Assembly: GCA_030834985.1 (NCBI GenBank)
Contig: JAUQWV010000001.1
Span: 120,979-184,978, forward strand
DNA length: 64,000 nt
Source: Candidatus Dojkabacteria bacterium
GTDB taxonomy: Bacteria > Patescibacteriota > Dojkabacteria > J137
Direction: 5' to 3'
How positions within the stretch are numbered: the stretch's first letter is position 1; each line of letters opens with the position of its first letter. A model generated the notes under the pieces. The model had not been told where the DNA came from. It worked only from the letters and a program-made list of their open reading frames with translations, and did not search any database. This document shows, in pieces, positions 2,627 through 30,730 of this stretch. The position numbers were made by a program, and so were the translations under genes.

Positions 2627-4102
2627 TTAATCGATTCCTAACCAAACTAGTTTAGGTTTAAAATACAAAACAGAGTCGTTACTTACTTTAATACTTAATA
2701 ATTCTTTTTCTTCCTTAGTTTGAATATCAACTATTCTATACTCAATAATTGTTTCTGTTGCTGCGTTATAGTTTCGGTAGTAAGAAAGAGTGTTTTTTGC
2801 TGGGTTATAAATAAAATTGTATAGATCTTGAGGTAATTTAATAGATTCTATAGGTGACATTGTATTATCTTCATTGTTATATCTATTTATTGTGTATATG
2901 CGGTCACCGGAATAGTTCTCTGTATCTTCTGGTAATGAAGTTAACAAATATATGTCGTCACTACCAATTACTTCAATCTGATGCGTTGTTTCACTTTTTT
3001 CTAAATCTCTAATTTTTGTTAAAGATTTATCGTTAATGTTAAGTCTGTTGATACTTGGTCTATTTGTCTCAGGTGGATTGTAAGGATAATAATTCTGCAC
3101 AATAGCGTTTTCATTTTTTGCAGTTATAATGCTAAGAGATCCTGAATGTTGAACCTCGTTATATATATCAGTAAAATTTCTGTCCTTTAAGGCAAAAGCT
3201 TTTTGATATCCTGCATAGCCGCAGCCCAGGTACATAGAAACAACATTGTTAATAATATTTTTGTTATATGGTACGCAGTCTGGATTACCGTCTGTTAAAA
3301 CGGAAAATTTTGAAATATTAGAATCCGCTATATTGTAAAGGAGTAATTCGTTACCTTGAAGTAGAATGATTTTTGTATTATCACTATCGTATCCAACTAG
3401 TTTAATCTCGTGTGCACCAAGCCTATTACTTAAATCATAAGGTAGATACGAAGTATTATATCCTGCAGCAATATCATCTACGTATTCAACATAACTTACC
3501 GGATAACTAATCAATTCATCATACTCGTTTACATATACACTATAACTATTAGGATATATAACAATCTTTTTGTTATATACCTGCTGGTTTGTAGCTCCTA
3601 GATCAATTCTGTCTGTAGACCAAATTAGCTTATTTTCTCCTGTTTCTAAGTTCAGTTCAAAAACTTTGAATGCTATGGGATCAAATTTAAGCTTAGAAAC
3701 ATCCATATTAGATGCGAAAATTTTGTTCTTGTAATCTTTATCAGACAAACTGTAAGTAATTCTTTTTTTATCAGGCGATATAACATAGTCCATTATTTTT
3801 TCATCACCTGATACTAACTCTAGTTGCTTAACTTTATCTAATGTTGATGCAACAAGCTTATTATCATCTGTATTGTAAATAAAATCGTAGTTATCATAGA
3901 TTTTATCAGATGCTATATTTGGAGCAATTTGAACTTCAGGGGTCTTAGAACCATTTAGGACCAAGGCTATAACTGCAATCATACACAGCAGTACTACTGA
4001 AACAATCGCTGCTGCAATTTTAAATTTCCGTGTTTTGGCTAACGTTTTAAGTTTAGATAGTCTTGAAGCCTTTGTTTCGCCTTGGAGAGCTTGGGTTTCC
4101 AT
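2627..4102 (-). CDS. hypothetical membrane-anchored protein (491 aa), large extracytoplasmic domain
   Basis: One N-terminal TM helix (IAAAIVSVVLLCMIAVIALVL); the rest is polar and Tyr/Asn-rich, beta-rich-looking. Confidence 0.55.
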   Translation of the reverse strand: METQALQGETKASRLSKLKTLAKTRKFKIAAAIVSVVLLCMIAVIALVLNGSKTPEVQIAPNIASDKIYDNYDFIYNTDDNKLVASTLDKVKQLELVSGDEKIMDYVISPDKKRITYSLSDKDYKNKIFASNMDVSKLKFDPIAFKVFELNLETGENKLIWSTDRIDLGATNQQVYNKKIVIYPNSYSVYVNEYDELISYPVSYVEYVDDIAAGYNTSYLPYDLSNRLGAHEIKLVGYDSDNTKIILLQGNELLLYNIADSNISKFSVLTDGNPDCVPYNKNIINNVVSMYLGCGYAGYQKAFALKDRNFTDIYNEVQHSGSLSIITAKNENAIVQNYYPYNPPETNRPSINRLNINDKSLTKIRDLEKSETTHQIEVIGSDDIYLLTSLPEDTENYSGDRIYTINRYNNEDNTMSPIESIKLPQDLYNFIYNPAKNTLSYYRNYNAATETIIEYRIVDIQTKEEKELLSIKVSNDSVLYFKPKLVWLGID

Positions 4103-4209: not shown

Positions 4210-4284
4210 GGTGTTGTGGCCAAGTAGTAAGGCGAGAGTCTGCAAAACTCTTATGCGCGGGTGCAAATCCCGCCAACACCTCCA
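4210..4284 (+). tRNA. tRNA-Cys (GCA), CCA encoded
   Basis: Cloverleaf folded by hand: acceptor ggtgttg/caacacc, anticodon stem agagt/actct with loop ctGCAaa, T-stem gcggg/cccgc, discriminator t plus cca. The T-loop reads tGcaaat (G at position 55). Confidence 0.8.
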
Positions 4285-4298: not shown

Positions 4299-4389
4299 GG
4301 AGAGGTCGCATAGTTGGTCTAGTGCGCAGTCCTGGAAAGACTGTTTCCTCGCAAGGGGAACGCAGGTTCGAATCCTGTCCTCTCCGCCA
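4299..4389 (+). tRNA. tRNA-Ser (GGA), class II with long variable arm, CCA encoded
   Basis: Acceptor ggagagg/cctctcc, anticodon stem cagtc/gactg with loop ctGGAaa, 18 nt variable arm, T-loop ttcgaat, discriminator g plus cca. Confidence 0.8.
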
Positions 4390-4624
4390 TTTTTAAATGG
4401 TTCCACAAGACCTGCCTACCTCCTTCTGGTATCTTGAACGGTATTGTACATTGGCTTTCAGTAATTGCCAAATTCACAAAAAGTGCCTATTTTGCTCAAA
4501 AATAGCCATTATCGACTTTTAAACTTACCTCTCTGGTTCTAAGCTTTTTTGTTGCGGGTGTTGTGTATTCTTGATCGATGATTCTCGTTCTAATTTCGTT
4601 CCTCCCTTTTGATATAATTACTTT

Positions 4625-4858
4625 ATGAATAAAGAAAAGGATGTAAAAAAACAACATTACGTTCCACAAGTGTATTTGAGGAGATTTTCAATAAAAAATC
4701 AAATTAATGTATTGGATAAATTTAATGATAAATCTTACCCATCTAATATTAAAGATGTAGCTGAGGAAAATAGATTTTATGATATTCCTATCCCATCAGA
4801 AATAATTGAATTGGCTAAGAAGTCCGGAATAGAAATTGATCATCAATTTGTATTTTGA
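4625..4858 (+). pseudogene. truncated DUF4238-family gene (77 aa N-terminal fragment)
   Basis: N-terminus carries the HYVPQVYLRRF signature typical of DUF4238 proteins, which are normally ~300 aa. The ORF stops after 77 codons, directly downstream of the tRNA pair. Confidence 0.45.
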
Positions 4859-4928
4859 TGCAAGGCCATTGAATATCTATAGGTGATATAATCTTAAACA
4901 TCTATTTCGGATCTAGCTAATTTCTAAT

Positions 4929-5978
4929 ATGGCGAATATAAATTTTGATAGGGAGTACTATAAAAATTTAATAGCGAAGCACGGGTATCAAGAGCTGAAT
5001 ATTTCTGCAATAGATTTCAATCTTGGCGATATTAACAAAGATATATTACAGAGAAAATGGTTGTGTCACAGTAAAGGCTATATATTTGCAAAAGAACTTC
5101 TAGATAAAAAATCAATTGTAACAACTGGTATAGGAATAAGTGGTGCTCCACATATGGGCACTTTAGGACAAATTTTTAATTCTATATTCCTTCAGAACCA
5201 TGGTATTAATACGCAATTTGTATTAGGAGATTTAGATGCTTACAACGGTAAAAAACTTTCATTATCTTACGTAAAAGAACTTTCAGAACAGTATAAATCA
5301 TTTATTACTAAGTTAGGCTATTCTACAACGGATGGAAATATACTAAGGAATCAATTTGATGCAAGTGAAGTAACTAGGACAATGTATCTAATTGCAAAAT
5401 TTATAGAAGATAAAGATTTTGATAATGTGGAAGAAGATCTTCACAATTTTTATTCTGATAAAGGAAAAGTAGATAAGGATATGTCATTTAGACGTAAGAC
5501 TTCTCTTACTCTTATGACTGCAGATTTTATAGATCTTGTTATCAATCACAGTTTTACTAACGTGTTAGTTACATTAGGAGTAGATGAACATAAGTATGTT
5601 TTGTTTTCAGAAAAGATTCTAGAAAGAGTTATAGAGTCCGGTGAAATACTACCAAGCGACAGTATTATAAATTTTGGAGCAATGTACACTCACATAATTA
5701 GAGGCTTTAATAACTACCCTAAAATGTCGAAATCATTCCCTGATTCTTCGATAAATATTGAAATGAAATCAGATGAAATAAGAAATAGAATTTTGAATGA
5801 AAGAACAAACAAAATTCCAGAAGAAGACACTGTATATCAAATGATGTGTCTAGTAAGTAAATTTAATAGTGAGGAACTGTCAAAAAGATATATTGCATGC
5901 AAAGAAGATAAAGCATTATGGATGAAATATAAAAACGACTATATAGAATACTTGATAGATATTTTTAAACTGTGGTGA
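4929..5978 (+). CDS. class I aminoacyl-tRNA synthetase paralog, TrpRS/TyrRS family, divergent (349 aa)
   Basis: HIGH-region-like GIGISGAPHMGTLGQ, FVLGDLDA, and an intact KMSKS (YPKMSKSFPDSSINI...IRNRI). It has an extra ~65 aa N-terminal extension. First gene of a tightly packed operon. Confidence 0.6.
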   Translation: MANINFDREYYKNLIAKHGYQELNISAIDFNLGDINKDILQRKWLCHSKGYIFAKELLDKKSIVTTGIGISGAPHMGTLGQIFNSIFLQNHGINTQFVLGDLDAYNGKKLSLSYVKELSEQYKSFITKLGYSTTDGNILRNQFDASEVTRTMYLIAKFIEDKDFDNVEEDLHNFYSDKGKVDKDMSFRRKTSLTLMTADFIDLVINHSFTNVLVTLGVDEHKYVLFSEKILERVIESGEILPSDSIINFGAMYTHIIRGFNNYPKMSKSFPDSSINIEMKSDEIRNRILNERTNKIPEEDTVYQMMCLVSKFNSEELSKRYIACKEDKALWMKYKNDYIEYLIDIFKLW

Positions 5979-5979
5979 A

Positions 5980-7107
5980 ATGAAAAAATTTGCAAATGGC
6001 ATACAATTTAATAACCCTTTACACGAAGCGATATATCGGATAAACGTTGGACAAGATATAACTGAAGAGATGGCATACAATGCTTTTAGCTATACACTTA
6101 ACATTGAGGATGAAATTAATCGTGGAGTCTGCTTAGGAGTACTACTAAATGGTATAGTTTCCAAAAGACCCCAAATACATGAAATTCTCGGGATATTAAA
6201 AGCAACTCTTGACTATGATGGGATAGATATTACAAATCAAAAAAGATTGGAGATGCCTAACAATGCCCGAGTTATAGGCTATGCAGGGAGCGGTAAGAAA
6301 GGTATAAAAACTATTAATGTGTCTTCTTGCGCAGCCATCGTTGCTGCCACAGCGGGTACTTATGTGGCAAAATCATGTTCTGGTTCTACATCGTCTGTAT
6401 CAGGTTCTGCAGATTTCATTGAAATTTTAGGTGCCAATATTAGCCAAACTAATGAAGAGATGATAGATATAATGAAAAAGACTGGCTTAGGTTTCTTTAA
6501 AATTGAAAAAATGATCCCTAAGTTTGATAAGGTATATGGAGGTCATTTCTATGCACCTAATGCTCTAAGCTTTGGATTAGCAGGTATTTTATTGCCTTTT
6601 AGACCTGACAATTTATTTTACGGTTTAGCCCATCCTAATATTCACTTACTTATAAATGTACTAAAAGAATTAAATTATCGTTATGCATTCGTTGCATCAA
6701 CAACTGATGATGGAGTGCACTTTCTTGATGAGATTGGAATATTTGGTATGACTTCGGTTATTGGTATTCAGGAACATAAAATTGGTCATACTCTTACTTT
6801 CTCCCCAGCAGAAGATTTAAAATTACAAGGATACAATAGAAGTTCAATTGAACCAGGTAAGACTAGATTGGAGAATGTGAAAATGGGTGTCGATGTTTTA
6901 AGAGGGAAAGGCCAAATAGCTCATGAAGATTTGATTTGTGTAAATGCAGGAACCTTACTATGTTTAGACAAAAAAGCTAAAGACTTAACGGAAGGTTACA
7001 CTATATCAAAAGAGACTATCAAATCAGGGAAAGCAATAGAAAAATTAACTGAATTTATTACTGCAACTGGTGGTGATCTCAATACTTTAAATCAGTTTTT
7101 AGACTAA
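5980..7107 (+). CDS. glycosyltransferase family 3 fold protein (TrpD / nucleoside phosphorylase-like), divergent
   Basis: INVSSCAAIVAATAGTYVAKSCSGSTSSVSGSADFIEILGANI aligns by eye with the TrpD core [38 protein letters not shown]. The phosphate-loop GTGGD is replaced by GSGKKG and KHGNR by KSCSG. Confidence 0.55.
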   Translation: MKKFANGIQFNNPLHEAIYRINVGQDITEEMAYNAFSYTLNIEDEINRGVCLGVLLNGIVSKRPQIHEILGILKATLDYDGIDITNQKRLEMPNNARVIGYAGSGKKGIKTINVSSCAAIVAATAGTYVAKSCSGSTSSVSGSADFIEILGANISQTNEEMIDIMKKTGLGFFKIEKMIPKFDKVYGGHFYAPNALSFGLAGILLPFRPDNLFYGLAHPNIHLLINVLKELNYRYAFVASTTDDGVHFLDEIGIFGMTSVIGIQEHKIGHTLTFSPAEDLKLQGYNRSSIEPGKTRLENVKMGVDVLRGKGQIAHEDLICVNAGTLLCLDKKAKDLTEGYTISKETIKSGKAIEKLTEFITATGGDLNTLNQFLD

Positions 7108-8127
7108 TTGAAGGCAATAAAAATTTATAAAAATAAAATAGAATATACAGATATACATGAACCAAAAGTTGATGAAAAGTTTAATGTATTAGTAAGAGTA
7201 ATGTCAGTTGGTTTATGTGGAAGCGATGTACAAAGAATAGATTTTATTAATTCAAATAATCAAGAAATAAACCATCCAGTTTTAGGTCATGAAATTTCTG
7301 GAATTATCGAAGAAATAAAAGGAGAACAAGCTACTTTTAAAGTAGGAGATAGGGTGGCAATCGAACCTATTATCTACTGTAACAGTTGTAAATATTGCAC
7401 CGAAGGGAATTTCCAGTTTTGCGAAAATATCATTGCTTTAGGTAAAACTATTAATGGGGGATTTGCACAAAAAGTAGTTGTGCCAATAGAAAATATACAT
7501 AAACTACAAGATGATATAGACTTTGACACAGGAACTTTACTTGACCTATGCTCTGTCTGTGTACATATTCATAATTTAGCAGGTGATTTTTCAGGAAAAA
7601 ATATTGCAATAATTGGTGATGGTGCAGTAGGACTAATGACCGCAACATTTGTTGAAATATATGGTGGTAAAGCAATTATTATAGGAAAAAGGAAGAATGG
7701 TGGTTATAACTTTGTAAATTTTGAAGATGTTAGGAAACTAAAAGAAATCGAATCTACTTTTGACATAGTTATAGAAACAGTCGGTAGAAAAAATCTCACT
7801 TCCCTTAATCAAGCAATATCATTGAGCAAAATAAAGGGAAAGATTGTTGTCGCAGGTGTATTCGCACCAGAGTTTATGTTGCCAATAACTGCACGAACAC
7901 TTTTTTATAAAGAAATTACTCTTGTTGGAGCTAACTCATATAGTTATGATCATAATAAATCAAGAAGTGAAACTTTGTATGCAATTGAAATATTAAACAA
8001 ACATTATAAGAAGCTGAGTAATCTTATAACTCACAAGTACCCTCTTCAGAAATTTGAGGATGGACTTAATGCATTTAGAAATAAGGACACAAGTCATGCA
8101 ATAAAAATAGTATTTAACCCAAGCTAA
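7108..8127 (+). CDS. zinc-dependent alcohol dehydrogenase (MDR superfamily; sorbitol/threonine dehydrogenase-like); TTG start
   Basis: GLCGSDVQ, GHEISGII...GDRVAIEP, the structural-zinc Cys cluster CNSCKYCTEGNFQFC, and the Rossmann motif IAIIGDGAVG. Confidence 0.75.
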   Translation: MKAIKIYKNKIEYTDIHEPKVDEKFNVLVRVMSVGLCGSDVQRIDFINSNNQEINHPVLGHEISGIIEEIKGEQATFKVGDRVAIEPIIYCNSCKYCTEGNFQFCENIIALGKTINGGFAQKVVVPIENIHKLQDDIDFDTGTLLDLCSVCVHIHNLAGDFSGKNIAIIGDGAVGLMTATFVEIYGGKAIIIGKRKNGGYNFVNFEDVRKLKEIESTFDIVIETVGRKNLTSLNQAISLSKIKGKIVVAGVFAPEFMLPITARTLFYKEITLVGANSYSYDHNKSRSETLYAIEILNKHYKKLSNLITHKYPLQKFEDGLNAFRNKDTSHAIKIVFNPS

Positions 8128-8148
8128 TTTAACTTTTATTAAAATTTT

Positions 8149-9045
8149 ATGAGTACAAAAGAAGAGTTATATAAAAAATATCCTTGGTTAGAAGTAACAA
8201 CTACAATGGTTGATTATGTAAAGCCTAGTTACTACGATAAGATTATTAAGGAATACGAATATAAAGGAAAGAGTGATTTAGACTATACAATTGATTTTCT
8301 AAAAGATCAGACAAGAAAGGATTTGAGTGTTGTTGAGTTTGGAGCAGGTACAGGTAGAGGAACAAAACTTATAATGGAAAATATCGATTTTGATAAGCTA
8401 ACTCTTGTGGATCTAAGTCCTCAAATGATGGAGACTCTAAAAGAATTATTCAGCAAAGATTCTCGGGTACAGTTTGCACAAAGTGATCACCTAAACTTTA
8501 TGGAATCTACTGAGGATGTGTTCGATTTAATGGTGACACTATGGAGTTTATCTCACTCTATCCATCAACATTTTGGAAGAAATAAGGGAGATGATACTAA
8601 GATAGTTCAAATATTAAAAAAGTTCTTCACTAATAATATATCTAAGGAAGGAAAAGCATTCATTATCCACTTCGATACACTATCGGATGAGCAAAGAATT
8701 TTAACTAAACAATGGGCCAAAGTTTATCCTACCTTTGCTGATTATTACCACAATAAAATTCAATCTCCTTCTAAACAAATTGTTGATAAAGTATTAAATC
8801 AACTAAATGAGAGCAATACTATTTCATACAATTGTGAACATATAATAGGAGATGAAATTATATATAAAGATATGAATGAAGCTTTAGAGGTCTTCATGAA
8901 TTTTCATTTAGAATCACATTTCAATCAATTGGATATTGTCGAAGAAGTTGTAGAAGATTTAACAAATGAACTAAATAAATATAAAGACGAAGATGGAACA
9001 ATCAGAGTTAAGCCAGGCTTTTTCCTATACACTATAACAAGATAA
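8149..9045 (+). CDS. class I SAM-dependent methyltransferase
   Basis: Motif I VVEFGAGTGRGT followed by an acidic loop (LVDLSPQM). Confidence 0.6.
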   Translation: MSTKEELYKKYPWLEVTTTMVDYVKPSYYDKIIKEYEYKGKSDLDYTIDFLKDQTRKDLSVVEFGAGTGRGTKLIMENIDFDKLTLVDLSPQMMETLKELFSKDSRVQFAQSDHLNFMESTEDVFDLMVTLWSLSHSIHQHFGRNKGDDTKIVQILKKFFTNNISKEGKAFIIHFDTLSDEQRILTKQWAKVYPTFADYYHNKIQSPSKQIVDKVLNQLNESNTISYNCEHIIGDEIIYKDMNEALEVFMNFHLESHFNQLDIVEEVVEDLTNELNKYKDEDGTIRVKPGFFLYTITR

Positions 9046-9050
9046 TTGAA

Positions 9051-9905
9051 ATGACTAAACCTGAGAATTCTAAATTAATCGTATTAGATATTGATAACAC
9101 TATAAATACTAAAAATCTAAATGGAGAGATTCAATTAGTTAAAGAATTTATAGACTTACATACTAAGATCGATTTAAAGAAGAATATTAAAATTGCTTAT
9201 AATACAACTAGGGGAATCTCTCGGGTTTTGGAAATGCTAAAAGGTGAACAGGAATATTTCGGTAATGGAGTAATATCAGCATTAAATGGTTCTTTGATCT
9301 ACGATCTTAAAGGTATGCAACAACTTGAAGGTTATACTATCTCAAATGATATTAGAAAAATGTTGTCGGAATGGTTTATAAAAAACACAGATATAACATT
9401 TATGGCATTTTATACTAATAACGATATATATGGTCATGTATATTTGAAAGATGCTAATAATGTTGATGAGTTCTATAAATTGCATGAATCTTCTTTTAAT
9501 CATGAGAAATATAGATGTATATCTGATCCTAAAATCTTTGCTTCATGGATTGAACAAAAAGATATCAATATGATTGAATTCAAAACGGCTGATGAAAATA
9601 AAACAAATGAATTTTTGATTAATAATCCCAACATAAACTTCTCCTTTGATGGACATTTTTATATTAATCCTAAAGGTATAAATAAAGGATCAGGGTTAAG
9701 AGATTTAATAAGATTTATTTATAGAGATGAAACTAATTTGGATATTATAGTTGCTGGTGATTCTAAAACAGATTTAGCAATGTTTCTGGATTCAAACTAT
9801 ATGAATATTATTGTCGGAGAAAGACTACCAGAAATTAGAAATGAGAATTATACAAAAGTAAAAGATCCAAAAGAACTTTGCAGTATTTTAAGTAGCTTAT
9901 TATGA
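9051..9905 (+). CDS. HAD-superfamily hydrolase, Cof/IIB-type phosphatase
   Basis: Motif I LIVLDIDNTI (DxDxT), C-terminal IVAGDSKTDLAMF (GDxxxD), and a cap-domain-sized insert. Confidence 0.65.
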   Translation: MTKPENSKLIVLDIDNTINTKNLNGEIQLVKEFIDLHTKIDLKKNIKIAYNTTRGISRVLEMLKGEQEYFGNGVISALNGSLIYDLKGMQQLEGYTISNDIRKMLSEWFIKNTDITFMAFYTNNDIYGHVYLKDANNVDEFYKLHESSFNHEKYRCISDPKIFASWIEQKDINMIEFKTADENKTNEFLINNPNINFSFDGHFYINPKGINKGSGLRDLIRFIYRDETNLDIIVAGDSKTDLAMFLDSNYMNIIVGERLPEIRNENYTKVKDPKELCSILSSLL

Positions 9906-10813
9906 ACATATCCAGCAAAACAAAAGTTAACAGTGTATATCAATTGCCTGCTAATAAAAATGAATTATCAAAATTATCTGATATTACTACACTTGGGAAA
10001 ACATATAGCCTAATGAAATATGGCTCTCGGTTAGCAATCAGAGATTTCGCAGAACTAATATATAGCCAATACGAGAAGGACTTTGATTACAAAGATGGTG
10101 ATTTGTATATAACATCTACTCTAACCTCAGATATTGATTCCAGCTCACACTTTATTGCAAGGGAACTTCAAGAGATTATCAATAGAAAAAGATTAAAACT
10201 TAACCTCAAATCTTGTAAATATATTGAACTACTTGCACGAAAAAAAATACTTATTAGTAGCGATTACGGAAAAGTACAGAATAAAAAAGATAGAATTCAA
10301 TCACAAGGTAATATGGAACTTATAACATATCCAAATCTTAAGTCTGATGATTTACTACTTGTTATTAATGATTGTTTCGTGACCGGTGCTCAATGGGAAC
10401 TACAAGAAGAATTATTGAGAAGTAATAGGTTAACCTCTCTTATTAATTATTACTATATTATTAAATTTACTGAATCAAAAGGTAGCTTTGATATTAGTGT
10501 AGAAGACTTATTGAACAACTATGAAGTTAATAATGATTTAGATTTCTTAAATTTAATTATTAAGCTTTCGAAAGACAAACAGTTAACTTGGAATAAAAGA
10601 ACATTATTAAGGTCACTAAACCTTAATCAAAAACATTTTGAACTATTTATAGATGGGTTGAGAGTCGAAGATTTAGAAACTCTTTGTAATAATTCAGTAT
10701 TATCAGATACTCATCTTGTAAATAACGGAGAGTTTTTAGGCAAAATTGATTATATGTTCAATGTGTTGAAGAATAAAATCCAGAGAGAAGGATTCGAACC
10801 TCCGAAGCCCTAA
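9902..10813 (+). CDS. hypothetical protein with type I phosphoribosyltransferase-like PRPP motif
   Basis: SDDLLLVINDCFVTGAQ resembles the PRTase PRPP-binding loop. The last ~35 nt overlap tRNA-Tyr on the opposite strand, and the C-terminal ...REGFEPPKP is the antisense translation of the tRNA T-arm. Confidence 0.4.
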   Translation: MNISSKTKVNSVYQLPANKNELSKLSDITTLGKTYSLMKYGSRLAIRDFAELIYSQYEKDFDYKDGDLYITSTLTSDIDSSSHFIARELQEIINRKRLKLNLKSCKYIELLARKKILISSDYGKVQNKKDRIQSQGNMELITYPNLKSDDLLLVINDCFVTGAQWELQEELLRSNRLTSLINYYYIIKFTESKGSFDISVEDLLNNYEVNNDLDFLNLIIKLSKDKQLTWNKRTLLRSLNLNQKHFELFIDGLRVEDLETLCNNSVLSDTHLVNNGEFLGKIDYMFNVLKNKIQREGFEPPKP

Positions 10814-10862
10814 GGACGCCTGATTTACAGTCAGGTGCGATTGACCGCTCCGCCATCTCTGG
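10779..10862 (-). tRNA. tRNA-Tyr (GTA), long variable arm, no encoded CCA
   Basis: Minus strand reads CCAGAGA-TG-GCGG-AGCGGTCAA-TCGC-A-CCTGA-CTGTAAA-TCAGG-(15 nt variable arm)-GGAGG-TTCGAAT-CCTTC-TCTCTGG-A. Confidence 0.8.
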
Positions 10863-10991
10863 ATATGAGAAAGTATAACAAAAAGTGGGCTATTTTAGTA
10901 TGTGATGTTACGATAATACAAGACTTTTTGATGAAAAAAGTTTAAAATTAGCCAAATAAAATTAAGAATACTATTTATTCATAAAGAACGT

Positions 10992-12116
10992 ATGTTAGAC
11001 AATCTAAAAAATATAACAGAAGAAATTCTAGGAGAAGAAAGACTCGTAGAGCTATTAAATTCTAATATACAACCAGTACACTATATTGGATTTGAAATAT
11101 CAGGAAAACCTCATATCGGTTCAGGTATTGTTACCATGATGGTTATAAAGGAGCTATTGAAGCTAAATGTTAAATGTAAGATATTTTTAGCTGATTGGCA
11201 TTCATGGATTAATAACAAACTAGGAGGAGACATCGATTTTATAAGAGAGGTGGGCATCCCTTATTTTAAAGAAAACATTTTAGCTGCAGCAAAATGCGTA
11301 GGCGTTGATCCATCTAATATCGAATTTGTAATTGGTTCCGACCTTGCAAAAGATATGCAATATTGGGCTACTGTAGTAGATGTTGGTAGAAATACCAGTC
11401 TATCTAGAATTCAAAGAAGTATTACCATTATGGGTAGAAAGGAAGGAGATAGTGTGGATTTTGCGAAATTAATGTACCCAGCCATGCAAGCAGCAGATAT
11501 TTTCTACATGGGTATACATATCGCTCACGCTGGTATGGATCAACGTAAGGCACATGTTATTGCTATTGATGATGCAAATCATATGGACATAAATCCAATA
11601 ATAGTAAATGAGAAAAAATTTAAACCAGTAGCAGTTCATCAGCATTTACTGATGGGCCTTACTCCTCCATCAAAAGAGATATTAGAACGTATTGAAAAAG
11701 GAGAAATTTCTCCAAAAGATGTTTTAGGGGAATTAAAGATGAGTAAAAGTAAGCCAGACAGTGCTATTTTTATGAATGACTCAGAAGAAGAAGTTATTAG
11801 AAAGATTAACAAAGCTTATTGCCCTGAGGGAATTACTGTTTTAAATCCCGTTTTAGATTGGGTAGAAAACTTGTGTTTTAAATTCTCCAATTCAGAGATC
11901 AATATTCTAAGAGATGAGAAATGGGGAGGAAATATTACCTACAAAACATATGAAGAGCTAAAGAATGATTTTGAACAAAAGAAATTACACCCAAGTGATT
12001 TAAAGAAGGCAGTAGCACTATTTATAAATGATTTCCTTAGACCTGCCAGAGAGCATTTGTCCAAGCAAGAGATTGTTGAAATGGCAAAGAAAATAGAAGA
12101 AAAGGTAACTAGGTAA
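10992..12116 (+). CDS. tyrS: tyrosyl-tRNA synthetase, archaeal/eukaryal type
   Basis: HYIGFEISGKPHIGSG (HIGH region), ELKMSKSKPDSAIFMNDSEEEVIRKINKAYCPEG (KMSKS plus the archaeal-type TyrRS tail). ~374 aa with no bacterial-type C-terminal S4 domain. Confidence 0.8.
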   Translation: MLDNLKNITEEILGEERLVELLNSNIQPVHYIGFEISGKPHIGSGIVTMMVIKELLKLNVKCKIFLADWHSWINNKLGGDIDFIREVGIPYFKENILAAAKCVGVDPSNIEFVIGSDLAKDMQYWATVVDVGRNTSLSRIQRSITIMGRKEGDSVDFAKLMYPAMQAADIFYMGIHIAHAGMDQRKAHVIAIDDANHMDINPIIVNEKKFKPVAVHQHLLMGLTPPSKEILERIEKGEISPKDVLGELKMSKSKPDSAIFMNDSEEEVIRKINKAYCPEGITVLNPVLDWVENLCFKFSNSEINILRDEKWGGNITYKTYEELKNDFEQKKLHPSDLKKAVALFINDFLRPAREHLSKQEIVEMAKKIEEKVTR

Positions 12117-12749
12117 ATGAATAACTTTGAAATAGATAAAAAACAATTTACTTTTAAATATAATGATAAGAATTCAAAAATTCTTATCATTACAGGACCA
12201 AGGTCAGTTGGAAAAACTACACTTGCAAAACAATTTTATGAATCTATAGGTATAGATTTTCTGGATCTCGATGATTTAGTTAATGAGAAGCTGAGTGAAT
12301 TCTTTAAGTCTGGTTCCAAAACACCTTTAGAACAAGCTATGGAGGCAAAAAACTATGACTTAATAGAAAGTATAGTTAGAGATATTGTTCAGAGTTTTGA
12401 TAATATAAACCAAGCTACTGCCATTGCTTTTGCAGGAGGAGCGTATACAGGATACCAAGGGTTATCAGGAGATTTAAAATCGAAATTTATTACAATAGGA
12501 TTAATTCCATACGAGAATGACGATGAACTATCAGTAAAATTGCTAATTGAAAGAGAATCTAATCGGGAGCATTTCAAAAAACTTATTGATGAAGGGAAGT
12601 TAGATATGGAAACTTTATCTAATCGAGTACGAAATGATTATATTAAAGTAAATACTTATCTAAGAGCAAATACAATAGATGAATTAATTTTTATCCAACA
12701 AAAGACACCTATCGAAATAATGAACCAGGTGTTGGATTTATTAAAGTAG
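12117..12749 (+). CDS. P-loop kinase (shikimate/adenylate-kinase-like fold)
   Basis: Walker A ILIITGPRSVGKTTLAKQF followed by LDLDD. Its start overlaps the tyrS stop codon. Confidence 0.45.
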   Translation: MNNFEIDKKQFTFKYNDKNSKILIITGPRSVGKTTLAKQFYESIGIDFLDLDDLVNEKLSEFFKSGSKTPLEQAMEAKNYDLIESIVRDIVQSFDNINQATAIAFAGGAYTGYQGLSGDLKSKFITIGLIPYENDDELSVKLLIERESNREHFKKLIDEGKLDMETLSNRVRNDYIKVNTYLRANTIDELIFIQQKTPIEIMNQVLDLLK

Positions 12750-12752
12750 AAT

Positions 12753-13310
12753 ATGAAATATTTAGAGTATAAATTCGATAACTATAATATATTAGTTAGA
12801 AATATTGAAGAAGCTCAACGAATTGTAAACGAAAAGTTTGAAAAAGAGGAAGAGTTCTTTACAGATCCAGCTGACCCACGATTATTAACCTTACCTACTA
12901 TTAATACTGACGCATACATTCAAAAGGTGGGTGTAGATCAAAATAATCAAATAGCAGTCCCTGATAATATTCATTTAGCTGGCTGGTATATAAATAGTGT
13001 TAAACCAGGTGAAAAAGGCTTGAGTATAATAGATGGACACGTAGACGGCTTATTCAATCCTGGGGTTTTCCGTAACTTAAAAGAGCTTAAACAGGAAGAT
13101 ATTTTTACTATTGAATATGGTAATGGTAGTATCTATACATTTAAAGTTGTAGATAAAAAAGAAATTTCTACTGAAGATGCTGCAAAAGTTTTATTTTCAA
13201 AAAATCCTGGTATAGTAAGCCAGTTGAATTTAATTACCTGTGTTGGAGTATTCGATCCGTCAGTCCAAAGTTACGACAAAAGATTAATTGTAATTGCCGA
13301 AAAAATATAG
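12753..13310 (+). CDS. sortase-family transpeptidase-like protein with no N-terminal membrane anchor
   Basis: The catalytic triad is present in order: His (IIDGHVDG), Cys in LNLITCVG (TLxTC-like), and Arg 14 residues later (YDKRLIV). No hydrophobic N-terminus. Confidence 0.5.
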   Translation: MKYLEYKFDNYNILVRNIEEAQRIVNEKFEKEEEFFTDPADPRLLTLPTINTDAYIQKVGVDQNNQIAVPDNIHLAGWYINSVKPGEKGLSIIDGHVDGLFNPGVFRNLKELKQEDIFTIEYGNGSIYTFKVVDKKEISTEDAAKVLFSKNPGIVSQLNLITCVGVFDPSVQSYDKRLIVIAEKI

Positions 13311-13312
13311 AT

Positions 13313-13708
13313 ATGGATACTAAAGTTGTAACTAGAGTATTTATAGAAAATGAGGAAGGAGCTGTAATGTTGGGTAAGAGAACTAAAGGTGCAGGCGCTA
13401 AACAATGGGCTCTTATTGGTGGTAAACCTAATGAAGGAGAAGAGTTATCTGAAACTGTTGTCAGAGAAGTGAAAGAAGAAACGGGTCTGGATTTTGAACC
13501 TCTATATATTGGAAAAATAATAGATGCAAGTTTTGATGCAGATAGCCCTTGGCATGTATACTTGTTTAAAGGAAAAGCTACCGGAGAACTTAACCTTGAT
13601 TTAGATGAGATTTTAGAAATCATCTATGTTACTAAGGCGGACATAGATGGCCTAGATATCGCTTTTAATCACAAAGATTTGCTATTGGAATTCTTTGGCG
13701 AATCATAA
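13313..13708 (+). CDS. NUDIX hydrolase
   Basis: Nudix box GGKPNEGEELSETVVREVKEETGL (Gx5Ex7REUxEExGU). Confidence 0.8.
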   Translation: MDTKVVTRVFIENEEGAVMLGKRTKGAGAKQWALIGGKPNEGEELSETVVREVKEETGLDFEPLYIGKIIDASFDADSPWHVYLFKGKATGELNLDLDEILEIIYVTKADIDGLDIAFNHKDLLLEFFGES

Positions 13709-14750
13709 TTATTATATGGAACAACTAAATACAATACTTTCTTCAGCTAAAAAAGTATTTATAACGTCGCACCTTAAGCCAGATACAGATGCAGTCTCTT
13801 GTTTATTAGCTATGCATTATTATGTATCTCAAGTTTATCCTAATGTGCAGGCAGCTGCTTATCTTAGTGGTGAAATGACAGATTCTTTAAATGAACTTTA
13901 TGGATTTAGTCAAATTAAATGGGTAGCTGATATTTCAGGTTATGTTAATGAATACGATACATTAATATTTGTAGATGCTTCTCAATTACATCGATTCACT
14001 ATAAATCCAGATAAAATAGACCTAACTAAATTTAAGTCTATATGTTTTGACCATCATAATAACGAACCTTCTAAATTTACTTATATTGTTAATGAGTTTA
14101 ATGAACCTTCATGTTCTCAGGTATTATATAAACATCTATTTAAAGAACGCAGTGACCTACTGAATCCGGCAATTGGAGAGGTTTTGCTGACAGGGATAAT
14201 GGGAGATACAGGATCTTTAAGATACATTGGCAGCAAAACCTCAAATACTCTACTTTTAGTTAAGGAATTACTTGATGCTACTGGTTTGCAGATTAAAACT
14301 ATTCAGGAAAAGTATTTTGGATATCCAGTATCAGATTGGGAGATTATCACGGCGTTAATAACCAATACAAGGCTTGTATCTGACTATCAACACCCATTTT
14401 TATACTCTTATTTACCACTTGAATTTCTAGATAAGTATTCAACTAATACAATTAAACAAGCAAAAAATAAATTTTTGTTTTTAGTTAGCGGCACGATTAA
14501 AGGATATAAATGGGGATTTGTAGCTACTCCAGACACTTTAAAGAATGTAAATCTTTCATTTAGATCAGGTCCAGATTCTGTTAATGTAAGGCTTTTAGCA
14601 GAACAGTACTTTAATGGCGGTGGCCATGATCAAACTAGTGGTGGCGAGGTAGTATTATCTGATAATCAGACAGTCGAAGATCTTGTTTATAAGATGGAAA
14701 GTCAAATCAAATCGCTCTCTGATTTACCATTAATCGTGAAAACTCCATAG
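13695..14750 (+). CDS. DHH-DHHA1 phosphoesterase (NrnA-like oligoribonuclease / pAp phosphatase)
   Basis: DHH motif CFDHHNNEP, the Asp-rich FVDASQ motif, and the DHHA1 GGGH motif (NGGGHDQTSGG). Confidence 0.75.
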   Translation: MANHNYYMEQLNTILSSAKKVFITSHLKPDTDAVSCLLAMHYYVSQVYPNVQAAAYLSGEMTDSLNELYGFSQIKWVADISGYVNEYDTLIFVDASQLHRFTINPDKIDLTKFKSICFDHHNNEPSKFTYIVNEFNEPSCSQVLYKHLFKERSDLLNPAIGEVLLTGIMGDTGSLRYIGSKTSNTLLLVKELLDATGLQIKTIQEKYFGYPVSDWEIITALITNTRLVSDYQHPFLYSYLPLEFLDKYSTNTIKQAKNKFLFLVSGTIKGYKWGFVATPDTLKNVNLSFRSGPDSVNVRLLAEQYFNGGGHDQTSGGEVVLSDNQTVEDLVYKMESQIKSLSDLPLIVKTP

Positions 14751-15082: not shown

Positions 15083-16969
15083 GTGATGAAGCAGTATCGG
15101 CGTTCGCAGTACAAAAAGCTCTCAAAGCAAGGTGCTTTACATAGCTTCTTGGCTATCCTTTGGGAGTATCGGGCGTTTATGTACGTTCCGGCATTTTTTG
15201 TTTTAATGCTGGAGCTGGCACAGATGGGGGCAAGGGTCTTTATTTCAGAGATTCTTACCCGAATTGAGTTGGCTGACTGGGGAGTACTTGGCGTTCTGCT
15301 GATTTCTCTCTTTGCCTACAACATGCTCACTTTGCTTCTTGACGTTAAGATGGTACGAGCAGTCATTGAAAAGGTCGGCTATGACTTTGCATTTGCATTC
15401 GAAAATCGAGTCATAAGCCACGTAATTCGGCTAGGTCATACTTTCAATTCATCATTTCCTATCTCTGTAACCCTAGATAGGATCTCTAAGATTGAAAGGG
15501 TGTCTGACCTTGTTGAACAGGGCTTTTGGGCTTTGTTTAACAACCTGTTTCAAGGTGCAATAAGCATTGTGGTACTGGCAATCTACTTGCCACAGGCAGT
15601 TCCAATTGTAATCATTGTGTTCTTCCTGTTCCTTCGGTTCAATGGGCACATGATTGCAAAGCAGGGAGTTGTAAGGCGCCGGCGAAAAGATCGAGGTGAG
15701 GATAAAGCAGAAACTCGAATGAGACTGATTTCAGCAAATACTACTCTGCTCTCTAACAATGCGTTAGACCGGACAGAGGAAGAGGTATTTGCTCAGTCTA
15801 GAAATCTAAAGCGTGTGGGAATCCTTGAGTTGCTCTATGTTCTTCGGGGCAATGGGATAATCAGGGACATCCTTCTGTACTTTGGTCGGTTCTCGGTACT
15901 TTCATTTGCAGTGTACATGGCACAAATCAAACTGATAGACATCCCTAAGCTGGTTCTAATCTATACAGTAAGCGAGACCATGTTTATTGGTCTTTGGGGT
16001 GTTGTAAGGTTTATCTATTCGTTCATGTACGAAAGCCCGTCGATAATTAAAATCGATGAGCTGATGGCTATTAAGCCAACTGTAACAGAGCCTGAAAGTG
16101 CTGTGACCATTCCAAGCGGTCCTTTGGGATATTCTCTGCAAGGAGTAAGCTTTACCTACAAGGGAATCGAAAGTAAGTCAGAAAAACAGGAGAATCCGTT
16201 CTTTACGGAAGCTCTGAAGAAAGCGAATGCACTACGTCTGCAACTTGGCCTTGAAGAATATGTAGAAAGAAAAGAGGAGGAGAAGCCGCAGCATTTATGC
16301 GGACTTACTCTTAACATACTTCCAGGTCAAAAGGTTGCTCTGGTCGGGCAAAGCGGTTCGGGTAAAAGCACTCTAGCGCTGATGCTTTCTAAGCTTCAGC
16401 TGGCGGATACTGGCGAAGTTTATGTAAACGGTATCGAGATGAGAGAGCTTAACGGCTATGAACTCCGTTCCAGAATCGCTGTTGTACCTCAAGGCAGCAA
16501 TGTTGATATCTTCAACGATAGTCTACTTTACAATATCACATTGGGTGATCCGAGCTTCACCGAGCAAGATGTTATTGAAGCGTTAAAGGTAGCTGAGCTG
16601 TGGGATACAGTTTGTCAGTGGCCTTTGATGATCTTTGAAACTATCGGGGAGCGCGGGCGTACATTGTCGGGCGGTCAGCAGCAAAGGGTCGCAATCGCCC
16701 GCGCTGCAATCCGTAAACCTGACCTCATCATTCTAGATGAGGCTACAAGCGCATTGGATACTCAAACAGAGCGTGCAGTTCAGGATTCGCTAAATAAGCT
16801 GCTTGATGGACGAACAGCAATAATCATTGCTCACAGGTTATCCACAATTAAGGATGTGGATAAGATTGTAGTGATGAAAGACGGCTGTATAGTTGAAGAA
16901 GGCAGCTGGAACGAATTGGTCGGTCAAGACGGCGAATTTGCCGCGCTTGTAGATGCGCAAACCCTATAG
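15083..16969 (+). CDS. ABC transporter, fused permease/ATP-binding protein (exporter type), GC-rich
   Basis: N-terminal multi-TM domain; NBD with LVGQSGSGKSTLALML (Walker A), LSGGQQQRVAIARAA (signature), IILDEATSALD (Walker B) and IAHRLST (H-loop). RBS aaggagacgtgtgATG. Confidence 0.8.
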   Translation: MMKQYRRSQYKKLSKQGALHSFLAILWEYRAFMYVPAFFVLMLELAQMGARVFISEILTRIELADWGVLGVLLISLFAYNMLTLLLDVKMVRAVIEKVGYDFAFAFENRVISHVIRLGHTFNSSFPISVTLDRISKIERVSDLVEQGFWALFNNLFQGAISIVVLAIYLPQAVPIVIIVFFLFLRFNGHMIAKQGVVRRRRKDRGEDKAETRMRLISANTTLLSNNALDRTEEEVFAQSRNLKRVGILELLYVLRGNGIIRDILLYFGRFSVLSFAVYMAQIKLIDIPKLVLIYTVSETMFIGLWGVVRFIYSFMYESPSIIKIDELMAIKPTVTEPESAVTIPSGPLGYSLQGVSFTYKGIESKSEKQENPFFTEALKKANALRLQLGLEEYVERKEEEKPQHLCGLTLNILPGQKVALVGQSGSGKSTLALMLSKLQLADTGEVYVNGIEMRELNGYELRSRIAVVPQGSNVDIFNDSLLYNITLGDPSFTEQDVIEALKVAELWDTVCQWPLMIFETIGERGRTLSGGQQQRVAIARAAIRKPDLIILDEATSALDTQTERAVQDSLNKLLDGRTAIIIAHRLSTIKDVDKIVVMKDGCIVEEGSWNELVGQDGEFAALVDAQTL

Positions 16970-25259: not shown

Positions 25260-25331
25260 CAGTGCATTATAACTCCAATTTCAATCGATTTTTATGTTAG
25301 TGATATACTATTATTAGTTATTCTTTAGATT

Positions 25332-25802
25332 ATGCTTCAAGTAAACGACTTAGCTCCCATAGACATTCCTCTTACGAATCTAGAGGGCAACAAAACTACT
25401 CTAAAAGAGTTTCTAAATAAAAAGTATTTAGTTGTCTACTTTTATCCAAAAGACGATACTCCTGGATGTACAACAGAAGCTTGTGAATTACGCGACTATA
25501 ATCAAGATATTGAAAAGTTAGGTGCAAGAATAATAGGCATAAGTAAAGATTCTCCAAAGTCTCATAACAAGTTTAAAAGTAAATATAATTTAAATTTTGA
25601 GTTACTCTCCGATGAATCTCACAACCTTCAGGAAGCTTTTGGTATTTGGCAGCAGAAAAAGTTCATGGGAAAGACCTATATGGGCACTGTAAGATCTACT
25701 TTCATCTTAGATAACACAGGAAAAATTATAAAAGTTTGGGAAGAAGTTAAGCCCCAAGGCCATGCGAAGGAAGTATATGAGTTCTTGAGCACCATATATT
25801 AA
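25332..25802 (+). CDS. bcp: thiol peroxidase Bcp (peroxiredoxin)
   Basis: YFYPKDDTPGCTTEACELRD (peroxidatic Cys motif PxxxTxxC). Confidence 0.85.
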   Translation: MLQVNDLAPIDIPLTNLEGNKTTLKEFLNKKYLVVYFYPKDDTPGCTTEACELRDYNQDIEKLGARIIGISKDSPKSHNKFKSKYNLNFELLSDESHNLQEAFGIWQQKKFMGKTYMGTVRSTFILDNTGKIIKVWEEVKPQGHAKEVYEFLSTIY

Positions 25803-25831
25803 AGGTATATAAGAAATATATTATAGGCTAG

Positions 25832-30704: not shown

Positions 30705-30730
30705 GAAAATAAGCTGATATTGATTGAAAA

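Follow-up and report, generated by a model that had tools for sequence, protein, structure and literature searches.

A TyrRS-linked operon in Candidatus Dojkabacteria belongs to a rare, horizontally spread gene-cluster family with predicted biosynthetic function

Results

Six co-directional genes between tRNA-Ser and tRNA-Tyr

Within a 64,000-nt stretch of the Candidatus Dojkabacteria bacterium contig JAUQWV010000001.1 (assembly GCA_030834985.1, positions 120,979 to 184,978 of the forward strand; hereafter the window, meaning that whole stretch), we evaluated a run of six co-directional genes that lies between a tRNA-Ser and a tRNA-Tyr and is followed by a gene for tyrosyl-tRNA synthetase (TyrRS, tyrS). 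Comparing this operon with related loci, we found that only four of its functions are conserved, namely an aminoacyl-tRNA synthetase (aaRS)-like protein, a TrpD-like protein, a zinc-dependent dehydrogenase (ADH) and a HAD phosphatase, and that these form the core of a gene-cluster family that is rare, horizontally spread and apparently undescribed. An original prediction, made from the letters of the window alone, had described the tRNA bracket, a truncated DUF4238 gene and the six genes, and ARAGORN, Rfam and the open reading frames (ORFs) agree with it on all three. The features of the locus, with the searches that identified them, are as follows (aa, amino acids; SAM, S-adenosylmethionine; PRTase, phosphoribosyltransferase):

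4210-4284 (+), tRNA-Cys (ARAGORN, Rfam)
4299-4389 (+), tRNA-Ser(GGA) (ARAGORN, Rfam), the left landmark, whose 3' end is the junction of a strain-variable region
4625-4858 (+), N-terminal stub of a DUF4238 protein, 77 aa (Pfam PF14022, E 4.5e-13)
4929-5978 (+), class-Ic aaRS-like protein, 349 aa, the signature gene (tRNA-synt_1b, 41 bits)
5980-7107 (+), TrpD-like protein of the nucleoside-phosphorylase-II fold, 375 aa (Glycos_transf_3, 116 bits)
7108-8127 (+), zinc-dependent medium-chain dehydrogenase, Tdh/polyol-dehydrogenase-like, 339 aa (ADH_N, 86 bits; ADH_zinc_N)
8149-9045 (+), SAM-dependent methyltransferase, 298 aa (Methyltransf_25/12/11)
9051-9905 (+), HAD-IIB (Cof-type) phosphatase, 284 aa (Hydrolase_3, 57 bits; TIGR01484 at cut-off)
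9902-10813 (+), marginal type-I PRTase-like protein, 303 aa (PF15610, PRTase_3, 28.6 bits)
10778-10863 (-), tRNA-Tyr(GTA) (ARAGORN, Rfam)
10992-12116 (+), archaeal-type TyrRS (tyrS), 374 aa (NF006330, 386 bits against a cut-off of 220)

Spacings across the six genes are, in order, +1, 0, +21, +5 and -4 nt, and a terminator scan of the operon interior returned no terminator-like site on the + strand, in keeping with the single, tightly packed operon that had been proposed; promoter and terminator scans together with Rfam found no leader, riboswitch or T-box. Searches against Pfam and NCBIfam profiles placed the proteins in the predicted families, the PRTase_3 match falling just under its gathering score, while curated equivalog cut-offs were missed (trpS 44 against 177, trpD 150 against 199, tdh 140 against 458), bearing out the view that these are not the housekeeping TrpRS and TrpD (TrpRS, tryptophanyl-tRNA synthetase). 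The aaRS-like, ADH, HAD and methyltransferase proteins each retain their catalytic motifs. The six-gene operon is real and its arrangement is not due to chance, because the block from 4845 to 12851 (operon, tRNA-Tyr, tyrS and the next gene) is kept, at 92-93% identity, in two further metagenome-assembled genomes (MAGs; loci L011 and L012), and because the core set recurs in dozens of loci spanning phyla.

The signature protein is a rare class-Ic synthetase relative

Searching exhaustively with a profile of the aaRS-like family over 1.84 billion clusters at 50% identity, we recovered 285 representative clusters, without the bulk of canonical TyrRS and TrpRS. The family is rare and sharply separated from canonical synthetases, and the window protein falls with it in a clade of its own. 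Equivalog models for TrpRS and TyrRS score this protein at 39-45 bits against cut-offs of 176-478 (e.g., TIGR00233, 44 against 177; NF006330, 42 against 220). Aligned across the family, P-H-x-G-T, K-M-S-K-S and G-D-L-D are invariant and L-M-T-A-D-F is near-invariant, with the window protein reading PHMGT and KMSKS; the HIGH motif thus appears as H-x-G-T, with the second His alone altered. The protein keeps KMSKS and departs from canonical TrpRS and TyrRS in cut-off score, in HIGH and in the amino-acid pocket (Tyr32/Asp158 type), where the Y32 equivalent is Thr. Altered catalytic motifs had been predicted for both this protein and the TrpD-like one, a description that holds for the latter (below) and is too strong for the former.

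An AlphaFold2 (AF2) model of the protein (pLDDT 88) displays a complete class-Ic fold, including the C-terminal helical domain, with a TM score of 0.6-0.7 to archaeal/eukaryotic TrpRS and to Methanocaldococcus jannaschii TyrRS at only 13-18% sequence identity, and sequence profiles matched the M. jannaschii TyrRS slightly better. Because the protein is about equidistant from archaeal TyrRS and archaeal/eukaryotic TrpRS, the original label of TrpRS-like was too specific and is not justified over TyrRS-like. We also tried to call the amino acid (Tyr or Trp) from a profile-profile alignment with archaeal TyrRS and rejected that call, the Gln155/Asp158 region being too uncertain.

The identical protein in databases is a hypothetical protein (locus tag DOJK_00320). 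Its homologues (36-54% identity) are patchily distributed among Patescibacteria, Woesearchaeota, Nanoarchaeota, Aenigmarchaeota, Asgard and Methanosarcinales MAGs, Bacteroidota, Proteobacteria, Clostridia and Bacilli, the last including Lactobacillus iners and the Bacillus cereus group, and many occur in Actinomycetes (including Saccharopolyspora spinosa, Amycolatopsis, Nocardia and Promicromonospora). A search of a phage collection returned no homologue.

The TrpD-like protein has lost the anthranilate-binding residues

The TrpD-like family aligns end to end with solved TrpDs (104-181 bits), and TIGR01245 (trpD) scores the window protein at 149.7 against a cut-off of 199.05. Throughout the family the motif GTGGD is replaced by GSGKK and KHGN by K-x-x-S, both invariantly, and the anthranilate-binding Arg region is replaced as well, while the NIST, SSxxGSxD and Mg-binding D-E motifs are preserved, as is the fold of the TrpD / nucleoside phosphorylase-II superfamily. 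None of the hallmarks of TrpD itself (GTGGD, KHGN, the anthranilate-binding Arg, the TIGR01245 cut-off) is present in the window protein, and among the loci examined the gene was never seen in a trp operon. Judging from these motifs, the protein retains the fold and probably the ribose-phosphate chemistry, and anthranilate would not be its acceptor; we predict a phosphoribosyl pyrophosphate (PRPP)-dependent phosphoribosyl transferase with a non-anthranilate acceptor. The tryptophan- or anthranilate-derived product originally suggested loses its basis with these residues, and the constant partner synthetase of the cluster (see below) is TyrRS rather than TrpRS.

A four-function core recurs with TyrRS across bacterial and archaeal lineages

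To place the operon among its relatives, we fetched 67 genomic loci around members of the aaRS-like family (here given L numbers, with individual proteins given P numbers) and clustered all of their ORFs, taking as the counting set the 37 loci of the main subfamily (subfamily A) with at least 5 kb on each flank. The TrpD-like gene was found in 34 of these loci, the zinc ADH in 33 and a TyrRS (within 8 kb of the aaRS-like gene) in 34, accompanied by a HAD phosphatase of varied subfamily in at least 23 and by a HIT hydrolase in 8. All linked class-Ic synthetases in this subfamily score as tyrS (TIGR00234 at 248-405 bits, or NF006330), so that the canonical aaRS encoded with the cluster is of one fixed specificity.

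The TyrRS itself differs from lineage to lineage, with Woesearchaeota carrying a bacterial-type 400-aa TyrRS plus an archaeal-type copy of 337 or 374 aa, Bacilli carrying two bacterial-type copies, and Actinomycetes and Clostridia carrying a single long TyrRS (446-540 aa) inside the cluster. Pairwise identities of the aaRS-like proteins correlate with those of the ADH (Spearman 0.81) and the TrpD-like protein (0.78) and less with those of the TyrRS (0.41). That the linked TyrRS types are unrelated between lineages, and that their identities track the aaRS-like protein weakly, indicates a co-inherited enzymatic core to which TyrRS was recruited repeatedly and independently. Some TyrRS copies did move across domains together with the cluster, as Woesearchaeota, Bacteroidota and Methanosarcinales loci share 62-64% identity for the aaRS-like protein and TyrRS alike. 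We also considered the linked TyrRS as a tandem-duplicate ancestor of the aaRS-like gene, an origin that we rejected given the unrelated TyrRS types.

A second, more distant subfamily (subfamily B, 27-30% identity; L065-L073 and L077) occurs in Parcubacteria, Berkelbacteria, Saccharibacteria and Thermotogota with the layout TrpD-like, UbiA prenyltransferase, aaRS-like, NAD-epimerase-like and methyltransferase. Its partner is TrpRS (in 7 of 9 loci), not TyrRS, which means that the partner synthetase changes with the aaRS-like clade.

Gene fusions further tie the core together, with the TrpD-like and aaRS-like domains joined in P0321, P0343 and P0312 (the fused TrpD-like domain carrying the same GSGK motif) and HAD-IIB joined to the aaRS-like domain in P0245. 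A mobile version lies on the B. thuringiensis plasmid pBMB172 (NZ_CP021438.1, 110240-116636), where the gene order is aaRS-like, TrpD-like, ADH, HAD, major facilitator superfamily (MFS) transporter and tyrS, the cassette is flanked by IS6/recombinase and IS4 insertion sequence (IS) elements, and RefSeq labels the aaRS-like and TrpD-like proteins hypothetical; by inference, the plasmid-borne tyrS is an additional copy in that host. Other hosts elaborate the core in their own ways. The locus of L. iners DSM 13335 reads HIT, MFS, aaRS-like, TrpD-like, an A-PCP-C (adenylation, peptidyl carrier protein, condensation) nonribosomal peptide synthetase (NRPS) module and ADH; in MAG loci of Bacteroidota and Methanosarcinales, the core is joined by GTP cyclohydrolase III, a B12-radical-SAM enzyme, a phosphodiesterase and a further HAD; and in actinomycete loci it is extended by a GT2, a methyltransferase and an unknown protein of 355 aa. 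In Woesebacteria the core lies amid aaRS genes and a gene for CCA-adding enzyme, L013, L033, L040 and L078 have no tRNA within 10 kb of the cluster, and L085 has DndB/HEPN beside it, most other loci of the family lying outside defence islands.

A variant set of loci in uncultured Bacilli/Tenericutes MAGs (L058, L060, L062 and L071) is without the TrpD-like and ADH genes and instead encodes an APH-type kinase, an unknown 554-aa protein, the aaRS-like protein, a CAT-like acetyltransferase, a 5'-nucleotidase-like protein, a YgjV membrane protein and others, followed by two TyrRS genes. In P0272 and P0310 a long unknown N-terminal region is fused to the aaRS-like domain and may correspond to this 554-aa partner.

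The methyltransferase, HAD-IIB type and PRTase-like gene are specific to the lineage

The ADH carries the motifs GLCGSD, GHEISG and GDGAVG together with a four-Cys structural zinc site (CxxCxxC...C), with best NCBIfam matches to Tdh, idonate dehydrogenase and galactitol-1-phosphate dehydrogenase that all lie far under cut-off. The HAD protein carries DIDNT and GDSKTD, and the conserved phosphatase slot that it occupies is filled elsewhere by HAD-IA or HAD-IIB enzymes. In the ORF clustering of loci, the window methyltransferase (motif I, VVEFGAGTG), HAD-IIB and PRTase-like genes have homologues in L011 and L012 only, and the methyltransferases of actinomycete and subfamily-B clusters are unrelated to the window one. 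These three genes, the HAD by virtue of its IIB type, are additions of this lineage that serve for tailoring or fill a slot, so that of the six genes first taken as a unit the aaRS-like, TrpD-like, ADH and HAD phosphatase functions recur and the rest of the set is confined to the lineage.

Assignment of the sixth gene to the type-I PRTases (PRTase_3, ComF-like) is marginal, its PF15610 match reaching 28.6 bits against a gathering score of 28.7 (E 1.1e-6, profile positions 22-252 of 264) and its sequence holding a PRPP-loop-like LLLVINDCFVTGAQ. A word-indexed homology search found only two homologous clusters, and an AF2 model built from three sequences was unusable (pLDDT 48). The gene meets the tRNA-Tyr 3' end exactly, and the last 11 codons of its ORF are antisense to tRNA-Tyr. 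As the window ORF ends ...IQREGFEPPKP and a 92%-identical homologue (P0241; L011 15849-15894) reads the same tRNA in another frame, ...SREKDSNLRSPKDA, the true C-terminus is arbitrary.

tRNA-Tyr and an archaeal-type TyrRS adjoin the operon

Across the tRNA-Tyr, tyrS starts 179 bp past the stop codon of the operon. The tRNA-Tyr(GTA) has a long variable arm in the bacterial style alongside the archaeal/eukaryotic C1-G72 identity pair and A73, and its CCA is not encoded; it adjoins the operon in L011 and L012 as well. The neighbouring tyrS had been set outside the system in the original prediction, yet TyrRS is linked family-wide as tightly as the TrpD-like and ADH genes (34 of 37 loci), for which reason it probably belongs to the system, and perhaps the tRNA-Tyr does too, as a possible supply of substrate for the pathway. 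The nearest named TyrRS to the window protein is from Candidatus Dojkabacteria.

As a separate observation, the same archaeal-type TyrRS of 374-377 aa is widespread in DPANN archaea and also occurs in several lineages of the candidate phyla radiation (CPR) and in Caldisericia. In the window, tyrS heads a further + strand run (12117-14750) that begins, without a gap, with a small P-loop NTPase/kinase-like gene (AAA_14, with weak shikimate-kinase and PSTK-like matches) and continues with a sortase, a NUDIX hydrolase and a DHH phosphoesterase. In Clostridia the cluster likewise contains a small AAA_33/KTI12-like kinase and a metallophosphoesterase, the likeness of that kinase to the window P-loop protein being limited to the P-loop.

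The operon is accessory and borders a strain-variable hotspot

Several assemblies of related strains allowed us to evaluate how this region changes. Three Dojkabacteria loci whose TyrRS is 66% identical to that of the window (L081-L083) keep tyrS without the operon or remnants of it, have no tRNA-Tyr beside tyrS, and hold other genes upstream, several of them defence-related. Among them L081 retains the bracket itself, as tRNA-Ser(GGA), 5.4 kb of unrelated genes and tyrS, and the upstream region of L082 encodes restriction-modification (RM), OLD and ArdA proteins. Since such operon-less relatives exist, the operon is accessory; whether relatives have a junction empty of the operon had been posed as a check, and these absences show that the six genes are not a universal core of the related genomes.

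The left edge is where the variation lies. Locus L003 is 100% identical to the window from 4384 on, six bases short of the tRNA-Ser 3' end, and to the left of that point carries a different 9.4-kb segment (L003 1-9455) in place of the tRNAs, with genes for an MmeI-like RM/methyltransferase, a 1020-aa AAA_21, a 542-aa, a PycTM (Pycsar effector-like) and a 241-aa protein; the replacement identifies the tRNA-Ser 3' end as a site where a defence island has inserted. The DUF4238 stub, which covers only profile positions 1-52 of 281 (PF14022), is not in L011 or L012, whose similarity to the window starts at 4845, and from 4845 on the operon is collinear in both with tRNA-Tyr, tyrS and the downstream genes. 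The strain-variable hotspot is the interval from the tRNA-Ser 3' end to about 4845, and the stub is its relic, outside the pathway.

Acquisition as an island had been suggested from the tRNA flanks and the stub, of which the accessory nature and the variable junction at the tRNA-Ser 3' end stand, whereas the rest of that picture needs revision in view of the collinearity with tyrS from 4845. Neither ORFs nor Pfam matches revealed an integrase in the interval 4390-10777, as had been noted, and the repeat search of the interval gave no att-like direct repeats, its sole similarity being between tRNA T-arms; the marks of a tRNA-integrated island (an integrase, repeats of the tRNA 3' end) are thus missing from this interval. 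In composition, the operon is at 30.2% GC against 33.7% elsewhere and at a tetranucleotide distance of 0.17, within the upper range of the window, a mild deviation and not a strong signal of foreignness.

Other variation and composition in the surroundings includes an extra element of about 5 kb upstream of the tRNAs in L001, L002 and L005 (1714-6608), missing from the window (at about 1536-1548), which encodes a serine recombinase (Resolvase + Recombinase) and an HTH_Tnp-like protein. To the left of the tRNA pair, a 491-aa ORF (2627-4102, - strand) without Pfam, NCBIfam or PADLOC match is present in most assemblies of the strain and not in L003, L011 or L012. Within the first 20 kb, GC content departs furthest from the window mean (33%) at an ABC-type transporter gene (15083-16969, + strand; 628 aa), which lies in a stretch of 44-46% GC, may be of foreign origin and could encode an exporter. 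Tetranucleotide usage deviates most from the rest of the window at 24000-31400 (0.20-0.23), a region that coincides with a 1622-aa ORF (25836-30704).

Discussion

A predicted tyrosine-ribose biosynthetic cluster

Taking gene content, family-wide linkage, fusions and mobility as observed, and substrates, product and target as predicted, we interpret the operon as a compact biosynthetic cluster that joins tyrosine to a ribose-derived scaffold and yields a TyrRS-inhibiting product, with the linked TyrRS providing supply and/or self-resistance. We regard this full interpretation as evenly poised between right and wrong; our confidence is higher that this is a TyrRS-linked specialised-metabolite cluster, and lower for its specific target. 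It fits, in outline, the aminoacylated or ribosylated small-molecule pathway linked to aaRS targeting that was envisaged originally and that the comparative evidence also favours.

In the pathway that we envisage, the TrpD-like enzyme would transfer 5-phosphoribosyl from PRPP onto a non-anthranilate N or O nucleophile, the HAD phosphatase would strip the 5-phosphate, and the zinc dehydrogenase would oxidise or reduce a sugar carbon (e.g., ribosylamine to ribitylamine, or a hydroxyl to a carbonyl). The aaRS-like enzyme, predicted to be a tyrosyl ligase or a Tyr-tRNA-dependent transferase, would then add tyrosine, either directly with ATP or, in the fashion of AcmF and SbzA (below), from Tyr-tRNA(Tyr) made by the neighbouring TyrRS. 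In the lineage of the window, the methyltransferase and the second PRTase-like enzyme may tailor the product, which would be a tyrosyl-adenylate mimic inhibiting the TyrRS of competitors or hosts. The linked TyrRS would be the Tyr-tRNA supplier and/or an insensitive target copy, a role that the archaeal-type TyrRS with its C1-G72 tRNA-Tyr would take in the window.

Gene context and the fusions with TrpD-like and HAD domains suggest, by analogy with known systems, that the aminoacyl group is transferred onto a small-molecule acceptor, and a biosynthetic transferase or ligase is more likely for the aaRS-like protein than the self-resistance copy raised as an alternative in the original prediction. 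Hallmarks of small-molecule clusters support the biosynthetic interpretation, because the pBMB172 cassette is IS-flanked and carries an MFS transporter, the L. iners locus holds NRPS, MFS and HIT genes, and other loci include radical-SAM enzymes. HIT hydrolases are known resistance factors against aminoacyl-nucleotide antibiotics (PMC7157772).

Known precedents share the logic rather than the enzymes

The logic of the cluster, a divergent aaRS-like enzyme alongside a canonical aaRS of one fixed amino acid, is precedented by the ascamycin cluster of Streptomyces sp. 80H647, in which the AlaRS-like AcmF takes alanine from Ala-tRNA to aminoacylate a nucleoside sulfamate; the Ala-tRNA is supplied by AcmD, an additional AlaRS that doubles as the resistant target (PMC12945691). 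AcmF is AlaRS-like and of class II, is truncated and no longer has its ATP-binding residues, whereas the enzyme here is full-length and class-Ic with H-x-G-T and KMSKS invariant. The sulfamate, halogenation and adenosine-tailoring genes of ascamycin are absent, their place as scaffold genes being taken by TrpD-like, ADH and HAD, and the amino acid here is predicted to be Tyr and the hosts are CPR, DPANN, Firmicutes and Actinomycetes. Among the Pfam and NCBIfam matches of the window and related loci, there were no families for a sulfamate or sulfonamide nucleoside scaffold.

A second precedent is SbzA of SB-203208, an IleRS-like enzyme that moves Ile from Ile-tRNA, that in a model holds the acceptor by its HIGH and KMSKS residues, and that doubles as a self-resistance copy against the aaRS inhibitor (PMC12945691). 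Like SbzA (SB-203207/SB-203208, altemicidin), the window protein is a class-I aaRS-like protein that keeps HIGH-type and KMSKS motifs; however, SbzA is a near-canonical IleRS with an editing domain, whereas the protein here is 13-18% identical to any TyrRS or TrpRS, is accompanied by a separate canonical TyrRS, and would act in a different scaffold chemistry (no sulfonamide). Cyclodipeptide synthases (CDPSs; e.g., Rv2275 and AlbC) are likewise class-Ic aaRS-derived enzymes of secondary metabolism, some of which use Tyr-tRNA(Tyr) (PMC12945691, PMC2922099), but they consist of the Rossmann domain only (about 230-300 aa) without HIGH or KMSKS, compared with 349 aa, both motifs and a C-terminal domain here. 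The aaRS-like protein has no CDPS match in Pfam and lacks the features of that family. A 2010 paper by Aravind on class-I aaRS-like proteins reportedly covers CDPSs and a MetRS paralogue and not the family described here.

For the actinomycete versions of the cluster, an expanded form with an internal TyrRS occurs in a Micromonosporaceae MAG and other Actinomycetes (L054 and L040), and SB-219383, a natural TyrRS inhibitor from Micromonospora sp. NCIMB 40684, is a tyrosyl dipeptide with a sugar-like bicyclic part (PMC9054317, PMC3089240). By analogy we treat this compound as a lead only, and one for the actinomycete versions only; we found no biosynthetic cluster for it, nor any description of the aaRS-like/TrpD-like/ADH/HAD combination, in the searchable (incomplete) literature. 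The claim that no described system matches thus stands, within that literature, for the exact composition and not for the logic: what is known is the cluster logic (AcmF/AcmD, SbzA), and what is new is the enzyme families, the scaffold chemistry, the predicted TyrRS target and the host range.

Points that weigh against the interpretation

Several observations fit the biosynthetic interpretation poorly. The window TyrRS is the ordinary type of its lineage, with 66%-identical orthologues in operon-less Dojkabacteria; it is not demonstrably extra or resistant, and its adjacency could partly reflect the insertion hotspot. Some loci have no TyrRS at all (Woesebacteria L086, L018, L049 and L. iners L056). 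The amino-acid pocket of the aaRS-like protein does not read as Tyr-specific, with a Thr at the equivalent of M. jannaschii TyrRS Y32 and an L-M-T-A-D that looks closer to TrpRS, and the GSGKK of the TrpD-like protein may signal a donor other than PRPP. No exporter is encoded within the window operon, and to our knowledge antibiotic clusters are rare in CPR and DPANN genomes.

Alternative explanations

The best-surviving alternative, which we nonetheless consider unlikely, links the operon to translation: the aaRS-like protein would act on a tRNA, probably tRNA-Tyr, either charging it with a ribose-modified aromatic amino acid supplied by the TrpD-like, ADH and HAD enzymes, or aminoacylating or modifying a tRNA nucleoside in the manner of GluQRS and queuosine, and the TyrRS linkage would arise because both enzymes use one tRNA. 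In favour of this are the invariant H-x-G-T and KMSKS and the complete class-Ic architecture of the model, in which even the C-terminal helical domain, the anticodon-binding part of TyrRS and TrpRS, is retained; the small Thr at the Y32 equivalent points the same way, as engineered M. jannaschii TyrRS variants with a small residue at Y32 accept bulky para-substituted analogues. The tRNA-Tyr that abuts the window operon and the Woesebacteria core amid aaRS and CCA-adding enzyme genes also suit this explanation. Yet a dedicated tRNA is not a feature of other lineages (none within 10 kb at the four loci named above), the MFS exporters, the NRPS module and the IS-flanked plasmid carriage favour a diffusible small molecule, and the patchy, rare distribution is unlike that of a translation factor.

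Distinctly less probable is that the operon serves in conflict with phages, with a poison of nucleoside-like or aminoacyl-nucleoside type that would stop translation or replication in the course of an infection. The region from tRNA-Ser to the operon is strain-variable and carries defence genes (MmeI-like RM/AAA_21/PycTM in L003, RM/OLD/ArdA in L082, the DUF4238 stub in the window), and L085 has its DndB/HEPN neighbour, but the operon itself lies outside the variable segment, collinear with tyrS and downstream genes from 4845, and most other loci are not in defence islands. A PADLOC 2023 profile scan returned no matches for five of the six operon proteins and, for the HAD protein, a sole match that is weak and irrelevant (REase_II, E 5e-4); with nothing meaningful from that scan we do not class the operon as a known defence system, and the phage collection held no aaRS-like homologue. 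This explanation overlaps with the biosynthetic one, as a TyrRS inhibitor could serve defence.

We give still less credence to a module of salvage or primary metabolism that would serve auxotrophic, reduced genomes in their need for tyrosine or for a cofactor containing ribose, and would lie beside tyrS for co-regulation. Many carriers are CPR and DPANN organisms of minimal metabolism, and the pairing of a phosphoribosyltransferase with a phosphatase and a dehydrogenase also underlies primary pathways, those to histidine and riboflavin among them, with HisZ as a precedent for an aaRS paralogue that works with a phosphoribosyltransferase. Such a module would hardly be missing in close relatives and rare overall, nor travel between IS elements on a Bacillus plasmid together with an extra tyrS and an MFS transporter, nor be joined in other hosts by an NRPS module or radical-SAM tailoring genes, and Actinomycetes with full primary metabolism have it too.

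Very doubtful, too, is the possibility that the aaRS-like protein is a genuine extra synthetase, loading a ribose-modified aromatic amino acid, the product of the TrpD-like, ADH and HAD enzymes, onto tRNA-Tyr or another host tRNA for ribosomal incorporation or as a tRNA-borne modification, with the paired TyrRS keeping Tyr decoding normal. Least probable of all is a resistance cassette whose enzymes inactivate an external TyrRS-targeting antibiotic, with TyrRS as target replacement and MFS as efflux, since, for all that the mobile Bacillus cassette holds tyrS and an MFS transporter and some loci have HIT hydrolases, four-step inactivation pathways are unusual and the four conserved, co-evolving, sometimes fused enzymes are more constant than TyrRS, MFS or HIT, which fits a biosynthetic core with interchangeable immunity genes.

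Implications

If the biosynthetic interpretation holds, these loci would represent an uncharacterised family of compact clusters with four core enzymes and a product aimed at TyrRS, a validated antibacterial target for which very few natural inhibitors are known. With the aaRS-like protein, the very few aaRS-like enzymes that make aminoacyl natural products (AcmF, SbzA) would gain a class-Ic counterpart derived from TyrRS/TrpRS, and the GSGKK TrpD-like protein would define a new subfamily of PRPP-type enzymes. The switch between TyrRS and TrpRS in the sub-branches suggests a programmable scaffold for aaRS inhibitors. Were the extra synthetase instead correct, the family would show the translation repertoire to have been expanded in nature by a horizontally mobile module, found chiefly among CPR bacteria and DPANN archaea. 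With the six-gene plasmid cassette of B. thuringiensis and the locus of L. iners DSM 13335 in culturable hosts, the biosynthetic hypothesis is directly testable, and if true it would mean that a single mobile chemical weapon is common to ultra-small episymbionts (CPR, DPANN), a vaginal Lactobacillus, Bacillus plasmids and Actinomycetes.

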